From an uncultured Candidatus Saccharibacteria bacterium (GTDB taxonomy: Bacteria > Patescibacteriota > Saccharimonadia > Saccharimonadales > AWTP1-31): a stretch of DNA of 64,000 nt. The first letter of the stretch is position 1, and each line of letters opens with the position of its first letter. The stretch lies in contig CAZVTA010000002.1 in the NCBI GenBank assembly GCA_964629815.1, positions 194,096 to 258,095 on the forward strand. Reading direction: 5' to 3'. The notes below the pieces were generated by a model. That model worked only from the letters and a program-made list of their open reading frames with translations. It was not told the DNA's origin and did not search any database. A program made the translations under genes and the position numbers. Below are positions 23,122 through 34,978 of the stretch, in pieces.

Positions 23122-23197
23122 TGGTGGGGGTGGTTGGAATCGAACCAACTACCAAGCGGTTATGAGCCGCCTGCTCTAACCGATGAGCTACACCCCC
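23122..23197 (-). tRNA. tRNA with CAT anticodon, Ile2 (lysidine-type)-like; elongator Met not excluded
   Basis: Manual cloverleaf: GGGGGTG-TA-GCTC-ATCGGTTA-GAGC-A-GGCGG-CTCATAA-CCGCT-TGGTA-GTTGG-TTCGATT-CCAAC-CACCCCC-A-CCA. The anticodon arm and variable region resemble E. coli ileX as I recall it. CCA is encoded. Confidence 0.85.
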
Positions 23198-31693: not shown

Positions 31694-32368
31694 TTACTTA
31701 CAATAATCGCTTGTTTTGCCCATTTTTCCATCGACGGCAGGGTAGGTGCGGTAGTCTACTGACTCAAACATATCAAGCCAGCATAGCGCATAGCCCGACT
31801 GACTAAGGTCGGGTAAATTATTCTTGGTTATTGCATTGTTCTTGGCTGCGCTGTTTAGATCCCTGTAATCATACACGCCAAGGTCAAAGCTATAGTTTGC
31901 CGTATTTTTAAAACCAACTGCAGTGGCGACCACATCACCAGCTTTTACGTAGTTGTCTTTTGTGATTGGTGTTGTCTTAGACTCATCACATGCACTATTA
32001 CCGACTAGAATTTGACCATCCGAAATTGGCTGTAGTATCTCAATTATCTTTCCGAGATTCTTCTCAAATTCCTGGGCTGTTGTGTATTGTTGGCCATTCT
32101 CGAAGAGATCATCATTTGTTCCTATGCATACCACCACAATAAGCGGATCGTTAGGCCATTTTCTTACCTTAGTTTCTAGCTCAATACGTTCAAGCAGATT
32201 GCGAGTAGTATCTCCTGATATGCCGAGGTTAAAAATCTCAGGCTGTTTATTATGTTTTAGATCTTGGAGGGCTAGTCCATCGTAATGCTTACGTATTAAC
32301 TCAACCCACCCGCCTTCACTCGACCAAAAGCCTTGAGTAATACTGTCACCAAAGAACAAAATTCGCAT
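31694..32368 (-). CDS. SGNH/GDSL-family hydrolase
   Basis: Block I ILFFGDSITQGFW, block III GISGDTT, and GTNDDL. Start placed at ATG 32368, 6 nt after TATGAT (32375-32380). Confidence 0.8.
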   Translation of the reverse strand: MRILFFGDSITQGFWSSEGGWVELIRKHYDGLALQDLKHNKQPEIFNLGISGDTTRNLLERIELETKVRKWPNDPLIVVVCIGTNDDLFENGQQYTTAQEFEKNLGKIIEILQPISDGQILVGNSACDESKTTPITKDNYVKAGDVVATAVGFKNTANYSFDLGVYDYRDLNSAAKNNAITKNNLPDLSQSGYALCWLDMFESVDYRTYPAVDGKMGKTSDYCK

Positions 32369-32382
32369 ATACACATCATAAC

Positions 32383-32404
32383 AAAAATAACCTCGTAAGA
32401 GGTT
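32383..32404 (-). terminator. stem-loop plus T-run following unit A
   Basis: The minus strand reads aacctc-ttac-gaggtt, then ATTTTTGT. Confidence 0.6.
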
Positions 32405-32420
32405 CTAATCTGACAAAACT

Positions 32421-32618
32421 TGGTAGCGGGGGCAGGACATCGTACATTTGCCTTTGGCAAACACTCTTTCGCTCTGGTGTGCTCGGTAAGTATACCTGCG
32501 CGCACCCTCGCTACACCGAACCTGTGGTACGTTCGCTATTTAGCGAACTCACGCATCAGGCTCTCGTCTAGTCTCCGACAATGAAAAAAGCTCCACCAGA
32601 AAGGTGAAGCTATTTTCA
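32421..32618 (-). repeat. unit A: ~198-nt element ending in the tRNA-fMet 3' sequence CCTGCCCCCGCTACCA
   Basis: 18 nt (32421-32438) are identical to the tRNA 3' end at 32797-32814. An internal hairpin at 32479-32505 covaries with unit B. No plausible ORF. Confidence 0.6.
32584..32610 (-). terminator. stem-loop plus T-run following unit B
   Basis: The minus strand reads agcttcacc-tttc-tggtggagc, then TTTTTT. Confidence 0.65.
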
Positions 32619-32796
32619 TGGTAGCGGGGGCAGGGGCGTCCTTCGGATCATTTCCTCGTGTGCTCGAAGCAAGCTTCTGCGCACATTCGTCATGAACGAA
32701 CCTACGACCACGCCTGGCTTTGCCATGCTGGTCGCAGAACCAAGACCAGCTCCATGACCAAGAAAAAAGCCCCATCTTTCGATGAGACTTTTATCT
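32619..32796 (-). repeat. unit B: ~178-nt element ending in the tRNA-fMet 3' sequence CCTGCCCCCGCTACCA
   Basis: 16 nt (32619-32634) are identical to the tRNA 3' end. Hairpin at 32660-32684. Confidence 0.6.
32763..32788 (-). terminator. stem-loop plus T-run following tRNA-fMet
   Basis: The minus strand reads gtctcatc-gaaa-gatggggc, then TTTTTT. Confidence 0.65.
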
Positions 32797-32871
32797 TGGT
32801 AGCGGGGGCAGGACTCGAACCTGCGACCTTGTGGTTATGAGCCACACGAGCTGCCACTGCTCTACCCCGCG
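32797..32871 (-). tRNA. initiator-type tRNA-Met (CAT)
   Basis: Manual cloverleaf: CGCGGGG-TA-GAGC-AGTGGCA-GCTC-G-TGTGG-CTCATAA-CCACA-AGGTC-GCAGG-TTCGAGT-CCTGC-CCCCGCT-A-CCA. The unpaired C1xU72 is the bacterial initiator hallmark. Confidence 0.85.
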
Positions 32872-33108
32872 ACGTCGATGTGTAATGCTGCGGTAGTCAA
32901 TTCGCCGACAAAACAAGTTTGCTCGGCAAATTCTACTACCCCAGTAAGCCATCTCCTTTTCCCCAAAAAGAATCCTCTCTTTTCGGGGACCCCAAGTATG
33001 AATTTACTTAGGCTGCTCTTTTCTCTGAAGATTCAAGCTCAATAATCATACCAAACAGGGGTAATTATGTCAATGGTGGTATACTGTAGGCTATAAAGCA
33101 TAAACACT

Positions 33109-33414
33109 ATGGACGATCAAAAGCAAAAAACTAAACCAGTTAGGTCTAAAAAAGAACAGCGTGGCATAAAGGTGTTGGTTGGTGGAATCGTGGTAACGGT
33201 GGTTGCGTTTGTGGTACAGCGTTTAGCACTGTATGTGTTAATTGTTTCCATGCCGGCGGCTTTTGCGAGTGCACTGTATCTTTTATTTGAAGCGTACAAG
33301 CGAAATGCCGAAAAACAAGAAGCCGCCCCCGACTGGAACGCGGTAGACTTACCTAAACCTGCCGAGGAAGTTCCTATAAAAGAGCGAAGCGTAATAATGC
33401 CCGACGAAAAATAA
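33109..33414 (+). CDS. small membrane protein, unknown function
   Basis: 101-aa ORF with two TM helices. Extended -10 TGgTATACT at 33077-33085. Confidence 0.55.
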   Translation: MDDQKQKTKPVRSKKEQRGIKVLVGGIVVTVVAFVVQRLALYVLIVSMPAAFASALYLLFEAYKRNAEKQEAAPDWNAVDLPKPAEEVPIKERSVIMPDEK

Positions 33415-33415
33415 A

Positions 33416-33441
33416 ACAACCCCAATAACTGGGGCTGTTTT
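33416..33441. terminator. bidirectional Rho-independent terminator between convergent genes
   Basis: acaacccc-aataact-ggggctgt stem-loop with an A-run upstream and a T-run downstream. Confidence 0.7.
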
Positions 33442-33460
33442 ATGCAAAGTGGTAAATAAA

Positions 33461-33772
33461 TTACCAGCTGCGCTGACGGAATGAACCGCCGCCGTTGTTG
33501 CCGCCAAAGTCACGTCGTGGACGATCTTCTTTTGGTCGAGCTTCGTTGACAGTGATGGAACGACCACCAAGGTCAGAGTTGTTTAGAGCTTTTTCAGCTG
33601 CTTTACCTTCGTCGTCGTTTTCGAACTCTACGAAACCAAAGCCTTTGCTTCGGCCGGTTTCGCGGTCTTTAACAACTACTGCAGAAGCAACAGTGCCATG
33701 GGCACTAAAAATTTCTGAGAGCTCTTCATCGGTAGTTGCGAAAGGCAAGCCACCTACAAATAGTTTGTACAT
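33461..33772 (-). CDS. RRM-type RNA-binding protein with Gly/Arg-rich tail
   Basis: RNP-2 KLFVGGLPF, RNP-1 KGFGFVEF, and a C-terminal RRDFGGNNGGGSFRQR. Confidence 0.9.
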   Translation of the reverse strand: MYKLFVGGLPFATTDEELSEIFSAHGTVASAVVVKDRETGRSKGFGFVEFENDDEGKAAEKALNNSDLGGRSITVNEARPKEDRPRRDFGGNNGGGSFRQRSW

Positions 33773-33948
33773 TTAGGAAAATCCTTTTGTTTAGTTATCA
33801 GGTACGACCTTGCTTATAACCTTGTCGAACGGGGTGATTGTACCTGTAACCAGAACTTTCAACCAAACTTGCGAACTAAGAACTATAAGAACCTGTGCGC
33901 TTATTAAAGCACGAAACAGAGGCAAAACAAAATTAATTAGAAATTATA

Positions 33949-34901: not shown

Positions 34902-34978
34902 TGGTGCCGGTGAGTGGACTTGAACCACTGACCCCAGGCTTATGAGTCCTGTGCTCTAACCAGCTGAGCTACACCGGC
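34902..34978 (-). tRNA. elongator tRNA-Met (CAT)
   Basis: Manual cloverleaf: GCCGGTG-TA-GCTC-AGCTGGTTA-GAGC-A-CAGGA-CTCATAA-GCCTG-GGGTC-AGTGG-TTCAAGT-CCACT-CACCGGC-A-CCA. It resembles E. coli metT as I recall it. Confidence 0.85.

Follow-up and report, generated by a model that had tools for sequence, protein, structure and literature searches.

The tRNA-fMet locus

Within the 64,000-nt stretch of Saccharibacteria DNA analyzed here (the window), we examined the surroundings of an initiator tRNA-Met(CAT) gene with an encoded CCA (32797..32871, minus strand), which was called by both ARAGORN and Rfam (63.8 bits) and which, on reading the sequence, has the initiator-type 5' end CGCGGGG and a C1.U72 mismatch. 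Upstream on the same strand is a sigma-70-type promoter of the tRNA-fMet transcription unit (33045..33073; TTGACA, 17 nt, TGnTATGAT; 11/12 matches), separated from the tRNA by a leader of ~170 nt that is conserved in one related locus (L137) and near-identical in another (L230). A scan of positions 32200-33200 returned this as the sole promoter-like site, with none upstream of either of the two units described below. Upstream of the tRNA lie a small ORF and the gene of an RRM protein, and neither an integron integrase nor an attI site adjoins the array.

The first-pass annotation had described two units, B and then A, following the tRNA on the minus strand and ending in its 3' sequence, and this arrangement was confirmed. 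The sequence CCTGCCCCCGCTACCA occurs in three exact minus-strand copies (32797-32812, 32619-32634, and 32421-32436), with 0.01 expected by chance and three copies in none of 100 shuffles. The first is the last 16 nt of tRNA-fMet, while the second forms the tail of unit B (32619..32634) and comprises the T-stem 3' strand, the acceptor 3' strand, A73, and CCA. The third belongs to the tail of unit A (32421..32438), where the 18-nt identity to the tRNA 3' end noted earlier extends 2 nt beyond the tRNA to give a 20-nt identity, GTCCTGCCCCCGCTACCAAG.

Each core copy is followed by a terminator-like hairpin (32792-32765, 32611-32589, and 32404-32389), again in agreement with the earlier description. 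T1 (32757..32800, minus strand), the first part of cassette B, has a 20-bp stem starting from the tRNA's ACCA and then a U-run, and is predicted to be an intrinsic-terminator-like element. T2 (32578..32622, minus strand), the first part of cassette A, likewise pairs with the ACCA of core copy 2 ahead of a U-run. These two hairpins are homologous to each other, and the T3 terminator (32383..32404, minus strand) is unrelated to both. Directly 3' of T3 lies a GDSL-hydrolase gene (31694-32365/32374, minus strand); a genome scan for the gene order around it gave nothing, and homologues of the hydrolase were found in differing neighborhoods.

Unit B continues after T1 with a leader (32738..32756, minus strand) that repeats the tRNA 3' half in inverted and degenerate form (24 nt with 71% complementarity to 32805-32828; z = 3.05 for the colinear alignment with the complement of the tRNA 3' half). 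The 5' domain that follows (32702..32737, minus strand) consists of helix P1 (CTGCGAC / GTCGTAG) around hairpin P2 (GC-A-TGGC AAA GCCA-G-GC), and the 3' strand of P1 directly repeats the tRNA sequence of the variable loop and the 5' side of the T-stem. At the junction AGGTTCG (32697..32703, minus strand), composed of the T-stem 5' end and TTCG, the tRNA-like sequence stops and an inner module starts. Here we identified hairpin S3-S4 (32660..32684, minus strand), with a conserved internal loop GCA / GA and a CUUG-type apical loop, and a small hairpin S5 (TCC GAA GGA; 32638..32648, minus strand) preceded by the purine-rich GGAAATGA.

Unit A repeats this plan on the same strand, with a leader (32564-32577), a 5' domain (32518-32563; P1 GAGCCTG / CAGGTTC, P2 GTTCGCT AAAT AGCGAAC), and an inner module of the beta type (32439..32517; 87 bits to covariance model R1). 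The module comprises a conserved segment, GGTGTAGCGAGG, an S3-S4 hairpin with a C.A mismatch and the GCA / GA loop (32476-32506), and an S6/S5 hairpin with an A-rich bulge (32439-32473). The inner stem of S3-S4 is GAAG/CTTC in unit B and GGTA/TACC in unit A, which bears out the three compensatory changes reported from the first reading. The bodies of the two units show distant kinship (local alignment z = 3.2 vs shuffles), and units A and B are two members, of different subtypes, of one modular cassette.

Architecture and covariation of the cassettes

The cassette is ~180 nt long, contains no ORF, and retains its length (168-205 nt) and architecture in more than 30 species. Read 5' to 3' on the tRNA strand, it begins with a long hairpin and U-run whose stem starts at the preceding ACCA, continues with a degenerate inverted copy of the tRNA 3' half, and then forms the covarying hairpin P2 closed by helix P1, whose 3' strand directly repeats the 5' strand of the T-stem and TTCG. 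A conserved, structured inner module of 70-90 nt occupies the place of T-loop residue 58, and the remaining tRNA 3' end through CCA completes the cassette. The conserved part is the inner module, and the tRNA-derived segments copy a tRNA, mostly the one in front. In nearly all units the T-loop position reads TTCG followed by G or T at the A58 site and then the inner module; a gamma type lacks TTCG.

According to a crude classifier, hairpins preceding units pair at least 3 nt of the ACCA in 13 of 17 clearly classified loci (mean -29 kcal/mol), and the two flank classes that are mostly without units do so in 4 of 15 (-17 to -23 kcal/mol). Leaders aligned colinearly with the complement of the tRNA 3' half give a mean z of 2.27 over 27 units, at ~60-70% complementarity. 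The energy of a leader-tail duplex is no better than in shuffles (mean z 0.03), and neither the duplex-energy nor the colinear-alignment test detected a well-formed, conserved acceptor-type helix, although weak pairing may exist. We also rejected pairing of the conserved segment GGTGGAGCGAGG with the tail, the segment being unchanged when the tail is that of tRNA-Phe or tRNA-Lys, as well as a hammerhead or kink-turn identity of the conserved loops, whose core residues misfit by eye.

RNAalifold applied to a MAFFT whole-unit alignment recovered S4 and part of S3 only, after which the helices were set by hand and with a covariance model. Among 32 units from other genomes aligned to model R1, 87.5% of cells are paired vs 63% in shuffles, with double changes at 18 of 20 pairs and a result as high in 0 of 500 shuffles; sliding the helix partners lowers pairing to 24-50%. 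The S3-S4 helix covaries across these units, and covariation is also seen on a structure-blind MAFFT alignment; the homologous units in relatives, which the first-pass annotation proposed to model, show both conservation and covariation. A second structural class, gamma, covaries likewise, and P2 keeps the same shape with different sequences in 18 units, including a conserved purine-purine mismatch (mean z -2.3 vs shuffles). Overall, at least five helices show compensatory changes, and at least 30 species share the loop motifs; the median identity of the bodies is 58%. The conserved unpaired motifs include the GCA/GA loop, the C.A mismatch, the A-rich bulge, and the purine-purine mismatch of P2. 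This joint occurrence of compensatory helices and conserved unpaired motifs is what is expected of a structured RNA gene.

These observations bear on the notion that the units are a functionless by-product of palindrome extension or fold-back duplication (template switching) at the tRNA terminator, followed by unequal crossing-over. The alternation of palindromes (tRNA 3' half, hairpin T, inverted copy, P2, direct copy) is what serial fold-back copying is expected to leave, and the outer arms are indeed degenerate. However, compensatory change in at least five helices, loop motifs conserved in at least 30 species, and the recurrence of one inner module behind four different tRNAs all speak against such an origin, which is already disfavored by the covariation and which we regard as very improbable.

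The structure also appears to be strand-specific, favoring the tRNA strand. In gamma stems, G.T cells outnumber A.C cells 16 to 3; in alpha/beta stems the asymmetry is weak (29 to 18), and the conserved C.A of the alpha/beta module would be G.U if read on the opposite strand. The unpaired motifs are purine-rich on the tRNA strand.

Distribution of the family

Units or their remnants, one to three per site, follow an identical tRNA-fMet in ~37 of ~61 informative Saccharimonadales species genomes. Of 70 species genomes, 21 have a second core at a distance of 149-346 nt downstream of the tRNA, and decayed units are present in 14-15 more. Model R1 gave 32 strong matches in 81 sources and, within the window, found units A and B alone. 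In ~680 kb of related DNA, all strong matches whose context was examined are located behind tRNA genes or tRNA-end copies, and neither these matches nor the window yielded dispersed copies at unrelated sites. Rfam 15 has nothing resembling the units, unit-specific 22- and 26-mers are absent from IMG/VR, and blastn against INPHARED and PLSDB returned no match; two body-motif matches in viral contigs were both judged to be chance, lying inside high-GC coding sequence. We found no description of the units in the literature. The cassettes appear to constitute a previously undescribed, protein-less, structured family behind tRNA genes in many Saccharibacteria. Their distribution among species is patchy, which disfavors an important cellular role.

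While repeats of tRNA 3' ends are usually taken as footprints of islands, those found here bound a tiny, ORF-less unit that keeps its helices and loop motifs over dozens of species and whose tRNA-derived parts mostly match the tRNA in front. The result would be a new family of noncoding elements in Saccharibacteria, whose genomes are very small and have little spare DNA.

Tails and the tRNAs they match

The beta inner module is also found behind tRNA-Lys (L230) and tRNA-Phe (L002), in each case with a matching tail and P1, and the Phe-tailed unit derives from the same MAG as an fMet-tailed one (L137). In L230, the promoter and leader known from the tRNA-fMet unit precede tRNA-Lys in place of tRNA-fMet, an arrangement that may be a real allele. 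Related modules occur behind a second CAU tRNA (L136, L222-L229); in one of these (L222) the tail corresponds to an allele of the tRNA other than that of the adjacent gene. When the tRNA in front differs, both the inverted and the direct tRNA-derived segments differ with it. In the neighborhoods of RRM-protein homologues, tRNA-fMet is mostly missing, but units behind another tRNA were found.

Among 21 units found independently of the core, the core is perfect in 10, and the others end in ACTA, ATCA, AATA, or AGCA or carry indels while their bodies are intact. CCA is lost in about a third of units with intact bodies. Units with one to four tail changes, even those that have lost CCA, retain intact stems and high model scores (e.g. 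100.7 bits for L169), and the unit body appears to be maintained independently of the tail. Conversely, about half of the units have a perfectly identical tail, as against ~58% identity in the bodies, and this would also fit a functional need for the tail.

One alternative raised in the first-pass annotation was a small family of structured RNAs with a borrowed tRNA 3' end as a handle for RNase P/Z, the CCA enzyme, or aminoacylation mimicry. The family proved to be real, recurrent, and structurally conserved; the proposed use of the handle found no support. In a broader form, the tail might serve as a handle for processing, CCA repair, or aminoacylation, or read-through might produce an "extended tRNA", whose own 3' half would be locked by hairpin T and the inverted leader. 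Its 5' acceptor strand would then pair with the distal tail, and the inner module would sit on the resulting tRNA body. The minimum free energy folds of tRNA, hairpin, and unit do pair the acceptor 5' strand with the distal tail in four of four loci (fMet twice, Phe, and Lys), with the D and anticodon arms predicted to be intact in L002 (Phe), L230 (Lys), and L150 (fMet). Three different tRNAs are matched by the tail and P1 of the units behind them, and the break point in the T-loop is next to positions 59-60, where insertions into T-loops are least disruptive. Nevertheless, G or T stands in place of A58 in nearly all units, and the T-stem that direct copy and tail could form often has just 3-4 bp by eye. 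About half of the units found without using the tail carry mutations in the CCA or the acceptor strand, and the L222 tail mismatches the tRNA in front. Leader and tail do not pair above shuffles, and ARAGORN and Rfam call no tRNA, tmRNA, or other family in the units, in line with the lack of a cloverleaf noted at first reading. Moreover, co-transcriptional folding and a strong terminator would favor the normal tRNA. We consider a tRNA-linked function of the tail, in either form, improbable.

A 3' end made of an acceptor 3' strand and CCA on a larger structured RNA recalls tmRNA and viral tRNA-like structures. Unlike these, the units have no detected conserved acceptor helix, T-loop, or tag reading frame, are negative with ARAGORN and Rfam, and have often lost CCA.

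Gain and loss at the tRNA end

The same downstream flank lies directly after the tRNA in some species and after one to three units in others. The 5' and 3' modules occur in varying combinations and arrays are of mixed type, and at one locus (L183) ORF-bearing segments are bounded by perfect cores. A direct repeat of the tRNA 3' end bounding the insert is thus accompanied by empty sites in relatives, the combination that marks Campbell-type insertion. Small inserts recur at one position inside tails. At another locus (L194) a 4.55-kb island with a large serine recombinase is present right after the tRNA, and in L171, L189, and L192 the tRNA is followed by the same 3'-terminal stretch of the recombinase gene. 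The tRNA-fMet 3' end is accordingly a recombination hot spot.

The other alternative of the first-pass annotation, serial site-specific integration and excision at the tRNA 3' end, stands as far as such a hot spot is concerned (shared empty and occupied flanks, serine-recombinase islands, core-bounded ORF segments), and fails where it makes the units decayed remnants. In its specific form, in which units A and B are scars of two large integrated islands stripped of nearly all their DNA, it gains from the use of the site by islands and from a classic uninterrupted duplicate of the tRNA-fMet 3' end on a proteobacterial-type contig (L083). Scars would not be expected to share a stereotyped length of 168-205 nt and one architecture in more than 30 species, to have covarying helices, or to recur as a module behind other tRNAs. 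The recombinase islands join at GCTACCA with an arm unrelated to the units, and in four loci (L194, L165, L201, and L202) lie upstream of a pre-existing unit. Furthermore, the conserved module interrupts the tRNA-like copy in the T-loop, unlike ordinary attR sites. No full-length integrase element ending in a unit's two halves was found among ~100 loci, and we find it hardly credible that the units are scars.

Tandem islands bounded by repeats of tRNA or tmRNA 3' ends have been described as the ssrA islands of Dehalococcoides (PMC3146451), with Prochlorococcus tycheposons as another example of tandem islands at tRNA ends (10.1101/2020.12.28.424599). We compared the units with such islands, including cis-mobilizable elements that keep only att sites. 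Shared features are direct repeats that span the terminal 16-24 nt of the RNA gene, a gene-proximal position of the newest element, variable arrays, integrase-less elements, and an insertion point in the T-loop; some relatives also have a large serine recombinase reading towards the tRNA end, as in ssrA islands (DsiB). The units differ in being ~180 nt long, ORF-less, and stereotyped, with covarying helices and a conserved inner module, in containing the tRNA 3' half both inverted and as a direct copy, and in combining one module with the handles of four tRNAs without an associated integrase.

Comparison with Pfam of ~30 of the 63 ORFs in the window, those of integrase-like size included, revealed no recombinase and no transposase-, TnpB-, IscB-, Cas12-, or other Cas-like gene. 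This matters for a further resemblance, namely to guide RNAs that consist of a scaffold and a 3'-terminal guide of 16-20 nt, such as the TnpB omega RNA and Cas12 crRNA; the homing crRNA of type V-K transposons targets a tRNA gene. The units similarly present a scaffold of ~130-150 nt and then 16-24 nt matching the tRNA gene where mobile DNA integrates. In contrast to guide RNA systems, no TnpB-, Cas12-, or transposase-like gene occurs among the ORFs compared, and the would-be guide matches an essential gene of the cell itself, with a match that often decays.

Candidate roles of the cassettes

We hypothesize, tentatively and with a little less than even confidence, that the units are gain- and loss-prone cassettes bearing a structured sense-strand RNA, with the tRNA-end repeat as recombination joint. 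The structured parts would act as single-stranded nucleic acid of the tRNA-sense strand. In the simplest form this would be RNA whose transcription starts at the strong tRNA promoter, continues through the preceding hairpin, and stops at the next terminator; with a strong terminator-like hairpin before each unit, such RNA would depend on read-through. Rather than being an aminoacyl or processing handle, the repeated tRNA end would provide the joint at which cassettes are gained, lost, duplicated, and exchanged, whether through Campbell-type recombination within the segment from T-loop to CCA or through homology-facilitated recombination following DNA uptake. A new cassette would bring its own tRNA end and hairpin and displace the older end downstream. 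As a guess, the inner module might be a protein-binding RNA, since its purine-rich loops are conserved.

Small RNAs derived from tRNA transcripts include the 3' external spacer of E. coli leuZ, the tRNA-miRNA units of murine gammaherpesvirus 68, and mascRNA. Similar to these, the units are structured noncoding elements located just 3' of a tRNA on the same strand, show no promoter-like site of their own, and probably rely on the promoter of the tRNA. Unlike the units, these small RNAs have no copy of the tRNA 3' end, no cassette repeats, and no strong terminator in between.

The question posed by the family is whether a tRNA promoter drives a small RNA carried by a recombining cassette, or whether a nucleic-acid fold guides its own insertion into tRNA genes. 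In both cases, knowledge of tRNA genes as platforms for integration and expression would be extended, and gene flow would become more accessible to study in bacteria that are difficult to culture.

The second possibility corresponds to a recombination site made of folded DNA. The cassette would be a non-autonomous integrative element that adopts a single-stranded DNA dumbbell and is served by a recombinase in trans. The inverted leader would pair with the tRNA-end copy via hairpin T, and P1 would close around P2, rebuilding a duplex copy of the 3' half of the target tRNA gene; the inner module would bulge out at the T-loop, the proposed site of strand exchange, and the target would be set by the handle sequences. 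The joint variation of inverted and direct segments with the tRNA in front is in keeping with this, as are the arrays, the empty and occupied sites, the ORF-bearing cassettes, the module shuffling, and the inserts recurring at a single position in tails. The hairpin stem moreover contains ACCA/TGGT, with TGGT past the U-run where a terminated RNA would end. Set against these points, neither a tyrosine nor an HUH recombinase turned up next to arrays or among the ~30 window ORFs compared with Pfam, the inverted tail copy is only ~60-70% complementary, and unit-specific sequence is absent from IMG/VR, INPHARED, and PLSDB. The inner module also has conserved unpaired motifs and survives decay of the tail, neither of which a plain bulge needs. 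We judge folded DNA to be an unlikely account. A still less likely extension is that the cassette is a protein-less mobile element with a reprogrammable target, a dumbbell mimicking the 3' half of one tRNA gene and capped by two hairpins, which a host or helper recombinase would insert at the T-loop. Such an element would supply a new tRNA end and terminator, and changed handles would retarget it (fMet, Lys, Phe, and the second CAU tRNA). It would amount to an attC- or CTX-like mechanism acting on tRNA genes of candidate-phyla-radiation bacteria. We rejected a related candidate, the inner module as a T-loop-targeting mini-element of the IS200/IS605 type: no dispersed copies were found, and P2, the inverted leader, and hairpin T would go unexplained.

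Recombination sites that fold as a single strand are known from the attC sites of integrons and attP of the CTX phage. In common with these, the units have one entry point with arrays, structure that is conserved over sequence, and some ORF-less cassettes, and their imperfect inverted repeats could rebuild a duplex site with a central bulge. In contrast to attC and CTX attP, the entry point is a tRNA gene with no integron integrase beside the array, the inverted repeat is degenerate, and the bulge of this hypothetical DNA fold would be a conserved, structured module of 70-90 nt. Triloops of the GNA and AAA kinds are frequent, GAA, GTA, and AAA being common in the units, and such loops are no less characteristic of stable DNA hairpins than of RNA.

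The initiator tRNA locus

The minus strand of 32383-32871 agreed with the first-pass annotation, which had described a tRNA followed by units B (32619-32796) and A (32421-32618), with copies of the tRNA 3' end and associated hairpins. The observation is real. ARAGORN and Rfam both call tRNA-Met(CAT) at 32797-32871 (minus), which from its CGCGGGG 5' end and the C.U mismatch between positions 1 and 72 we take to be the initiator among the window's three CAU tRNAs. All three genes encode CCA; the other two, at 23122-23197 and 34902-34978 (both minus), have no copy of their own 3' end downstream in the window. The core, CCTGCCCCCGCTACCA, formed by the last 16 nt of tRNA-fMet, occurs exactly three times as described, on the minus strand only (0.01 expected), and unit A and the tRNA end have 20 nt in common. 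Each core copy is indeed followed by a terminator-like hairpin, the first two being homologous, with stems that start at ACCA itself. Rfam returned no match to unit A or B with E values up to 10 allowed, and Pfam, applied to about 30 of the 63 ORFs (integrase-sized ones included), detected no recombinase or transposase in the window.

Within 32200-33200, the sole promoter-like site lies 170 nt upstream of tRNA-fMet. The 170-nt leader between them (32872-33044, minus) is partly conserved in other species (e.g. GCGAGCAAACTTGnTTTGTCG and CAYCACACGTCGACGA), resembles unit A in two short stretches, and may be a structured element in its own right. Upstream of the promoter is a gene for a 103-aa RRM-domain RNA-binding protein (33461-33772, minus), homologues of which (mostly 67-90% identical) neighbour tRNA-fMet in about 30 of 81 related loci, at distances from a few hundred nt up to a few kb, irrespective of unit presence. 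By its homologues, the downstream GDSL hydrolase assigns the window to Saccharibacteria/Saccharimonadales; gene order around these homologues is not conserved.

Recurrence among Saccharibacteria

Conservation in relatives had been named beforehand as a test of the units, and they do recur. Scanning one genome per species with the 47-nt 3' part of the window's tRNA-fMet yielded 70 loci, almost all of them in metagenome-assembled genomes of Saccharibacteria. A second core (≤2 mismatches) lies 149-346 nt downstream in 21 of these, at 168-205 nt in 16 of them, and two units, as in the window, are present in one of the 21. When the loci were read individually, units with decayed tails (the tail being a unit's copy of the tRNA 3' end) were found in 14-15 more, while about 21 had no unit and 8-9 offered too little sequence; about 37 of the roughly 61 informative species thus carry a unit or a remnant after tRNA-fMet. 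A 22-mer specific to one unit type added 11 metagenome loci. Unit-specific strings were absent from IMG/VR, and neither INPHARED nor PLSDB held a match to the region.

Architecture of the units and fate of the tail

The aligned units follow one common plan: a terminator-like hairpin (T), a leader, helix P1 around P2, the motif AGGTTCG, an inner module and the tail. The stem of hairpin T contains ACCA, and its two sides vary in concert (for example ACCATG/CATGGT, ACCACG/CGTGGT, ACCAAA/TTTGGT). P2 keeps a constant shape, with a conserved purine-purine mismatch, in 18 units of unrelated sequence, and AGGTTCG corresponds to the 5' end of the T-stem and the first residues of the T-loop. In the tail, the tRNA sequence resumes with GT and the T-stem 3' strand in the beta type (18 nt), at the T-stem in alpha (16 nt) and at CGAGT in gamma (21 nt). 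There are at least four types of inner module (alpha and beta, both with helices S3-S4, gamma, and a short type), and they are found with 5' modules of three kinds. In the window, unit B belongs to the alpha and unit A to the beta type, each nearer to units of other genomes than to the other.

Colinear alignment identifies the leader as an inverted, degenerate copy of the 3' half of the tRNA (mean z 2.27; above 2 in 17 of 27 units), although its predicted duplex with the tail is no better in energy than that of shuffled leaders, in what is an insensitive test. One leader (L223:3560-3977, minus) opens with a perfect inverted fMet core, TGGTAGCGGGGGCA; hairpin T is missing there, and just 19 nt lie between this leader and the decayed tail before it. 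In another contig, where ARAGORN calls no tRNA, the place of the tRNA gene in front of an fMet-tailed unit (L207, ~260-330, minus) is taken by a fragment, the 3' half of another tRNA-like sequence (...GGTCGCTGGTTCGAATCCAGTCCCCGGAGCCA).

Among 21 units found independently of the core, ten have it perfect, and the remainder show one to four tail changes, often in CCA, with stems intact; the unit in L169 has four such changes yet scores 100.7 bits. Median identity of the unit bodies is only 58%, so the frequency of perfect tails requires a homogenising process or selection. Intact bodies with altered tails indicate that the tail is probably dispensable for keeping the body. The first-pass annotation had seen no cloverleaf in the units, and ARAGORN and Rfam likewise call neither cloverleaf nor acceptor helix there; in nearly all units, G or T stands in the position of A58. 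To judge from these sequences, the tail would not serve as a working tRNA handle. An extended tRNA, in which the 5' acceptor strand of the tRNA would pair with the distal tail within read-through RNA, does appear in the minimum-free-energy fold in four of four cases, but neither T-loop nor T-stem is preserved and the tails decay, making this reading improbable.

Hairpin-forming inserts of 20-45 nt break the tails of L131, L170 and L145 (fMet) and of L224 (~1650-1700, minus), all at one acceptor-strand position (CCCC / insert / (G)CCGCTACCA). In L224 a related palindrome, CCTGCCTACCGGCAGGCAGG, also lies upstream of the tRNA promoter region.

Covariation and strand preference

A covariance model of homologous units, which the first-pass annotation had proposed, was built on the beta module, and its helices covary. 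The model has 32 strong matches in 81 sources and, within the 64-kb window, matches units A and B only. In the 32-unit alignment 87.5% of cells are paired, compared with 63% in shuffles and 24-50% for slid partners, and 18 of 20 pairs have changed on both sides; none of 500 shuffles reached the observed values. An alignment made by MAFFT, blind to structure, reproduced the result. Helix S4 is 98% paired, with covariation in all five pairs, and is separated by an invariant internal loop (GCA/GA) from S3, which has a conserved C.A in 22 of 30 units and U:A in five; S5 is a short hairpin behind an A-rich bulge, with a loop of mostly GAA or GUA. Two further helices covary in the gamma type. Wobble pairs show a strong bias to the tRNA-sense strand in gamma (16 vs 3) and a weak one in alpha/beta (29 vs 18), and the structure most likely acts as a single-stranded nucleic acid of the tRNA strand.

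This makes it hard to explain the units as decayed debris or as a duplex protein-binding site. Covariation and the stereotyped plan likewise contradict an origin as fold-back by-products, which we regard as very improbable, and as decayed island scars, which is extremely so. The two alternatives of the first-pass annotation each contained half of the truth: a structured family stands without the working tRNA handle, and a recombination site without the decayed scars.

Recombination at the tRNA-fMet end

The same downstream flanks (AGTGAAA... and TAAGCA...) come directly after the tRNA in some species and after one to three units in others, and the tRNA-fMet end behaves, on the evidence of such junctions, as a recombination hot spot. 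In L194 a 4.55-kb island starts directly after the tRNA and encodes a large serine recombinase (Resolvase, Recombinase, Zn_ribbon_recom; L194:2970-4541, minus strand of the locus) reading towards the tRNA. The island ends in ...GAATGAACAAGGGCTACCA and is followed by a complete hairpin and unit, so the unit predates the island; junctions of this type recur in L165, L201 and L202. Serine-recombinase islands also occur in L171, L189 and L192. Islands of this kind integrate exactly at the tRNA-fMet 3' end, and beyond their far junction, ...GTTCCAATTCGAATGnAC..GG|GCTACCA, come the hairpin and unit that were there before.

Segments bounded by perfect cores and lacking an integrase were found in L183, one with a membrane ORF and another, of 1.57 kb, with a HATPase_c_2 (353 aa) and DUF4325 STAS-like (97 aa) gene pair (L183:2692-4044, minus strand of the locus). 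The latter opens with a unit-like 5' module and closes with a unit-like 3' end, as if it were cargo inside a unit.

Structure is also present in the common downstream flank, where an outer stem (AAATAACAGAGG / CCYCTGTTATTT) encloses a terminator hairpin and an uninterrupted partial T-arm copy, AGGTTCGAGTCCTGC, comes next. This flank directly follows the tRNA in L146, L151, L158, L180, L195 and L198, and the last unit in L131, L157, L165, L174, L202, L203 and L207.

Units behind other tRNAs and their interpretation

In all loci retrieved, the sequence downstream of every tRNA was searched for a repeat of that tRNA's final 16 nt, which revealed units behind other tRNAs. Behind tRNA-Phe(GAA) in L002, a unit has a tail identical to the tRNA-Phe end over 18 nt and a P1 from the Phe T-arm, and the same genome assembly carries an fMet-tailed unit (L137). 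Behind tRNA-Lys(UUU) in L230 the tail matches tRNA-Lys with one mismatch (P1 GAACCCA/TGGGTTC), and behind a second CAU tRNA in L136 it spans 24 nt. Both L002 and L230 have inner modules of the beta type, with scores of 71.7 and 47.3 bits, respectively, against R1, the beta-module covariance model, which also matches units behind the second CAU tRNA in L222, L224, L226 and L229. The tail in L222 is the L136-type allele of that tRNA, not that of the tRNA in front; its sister contig L224 has the local tail, broken by a 21-nt hairpin. This comparison points to tRNA-derived segments copied from, or exchanged with, a tRNA gene, and to an inner module that appears to be conserved cargo, its boundary always in the T-loop.

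These observations are consistent with cassettes that undergo recombination at the tRNA end and would each carry a structured single-stranded module. We tentatively favour, at somewhat less than even confidence, a module acting as RNA made by read-through from the strong upstream promoter, past the strong hairpin before each unit, because of the sense-strand wobble pairs, the purine-rich conserved loops, the terminator after every unit and that promoter. Exchange might be of Campbell type or, since Saccharibacteria are naturally transformable, proceed by homology-facilitated recombination after DNA uptake. A folded-DNA site, in which the inverted and direct copies would recreate, within single-stranded DNA, a duplex resembling the targeted tRNA gene, the module forming a bulge at the T-loop, would account for all handle segments changing with the tRNA and for a hairpin stem extending beyond the U-run; it is nevertheless unlikely, having no enzyme and leaving the conserved loops and the intact bodies with dead tails unexplained. 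Function and mechanism are directly testable.

In L002:41-85, about 85 nt upstream of the unit-carrying tRNA-Phe, is a degenerate copy of the tRNA-Phe 5' half through the anticodon loop. L230:582-1738 and window 32873-33773 encode an identical RRM protein, with promoter and 170-nt leader about 95% identical, and in L230 tRNA-Lys(UUU) with its Lys-tailed unit stands exactly where the start of tRNA-fMet is expected, the junctions having only CGCGGG in common. This layout is either a real replacement or an assembly/scaffolding artefact.

Comparison with known systems

No description of ~180-nt units of this kind was found in Rfam 15 or the searchable literature, and within that scope the family is new. 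The nearest described systems are island arrays bounded by tRNA or tmRNA 3' repeats, such as the Dehalococcoides ssrA islands, with 20-bp repeats, a 540-residue serine recombinase beside attL and insertion in the T-loop (PMC3146451), and the Prochlorococcus tycheposons, which leave partial tRNAs and remnants (10.1101/2020.12.28.424599). The serine-recombinase islands found here are of the same kind, in a layout much like that of the Dehalococcoides islands. The 180-nt units, in contrast, contain no genes and have a fixed architecture, covarying helices, tRNA copies in both inverted and direct orientation, and a single module shared among four tRNAs. Read as folded DNA, they would resemble attC or the attP of CTX phage. 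A viral contig from outside Saccharibacteria (L083:13729-13879) offers a contrast: 135 nt past tRNA-fMet, the gene's 3' half and the 20 nt downstream of it recur as a classic duplicate with no interruption, unlike the copies that the units contain.
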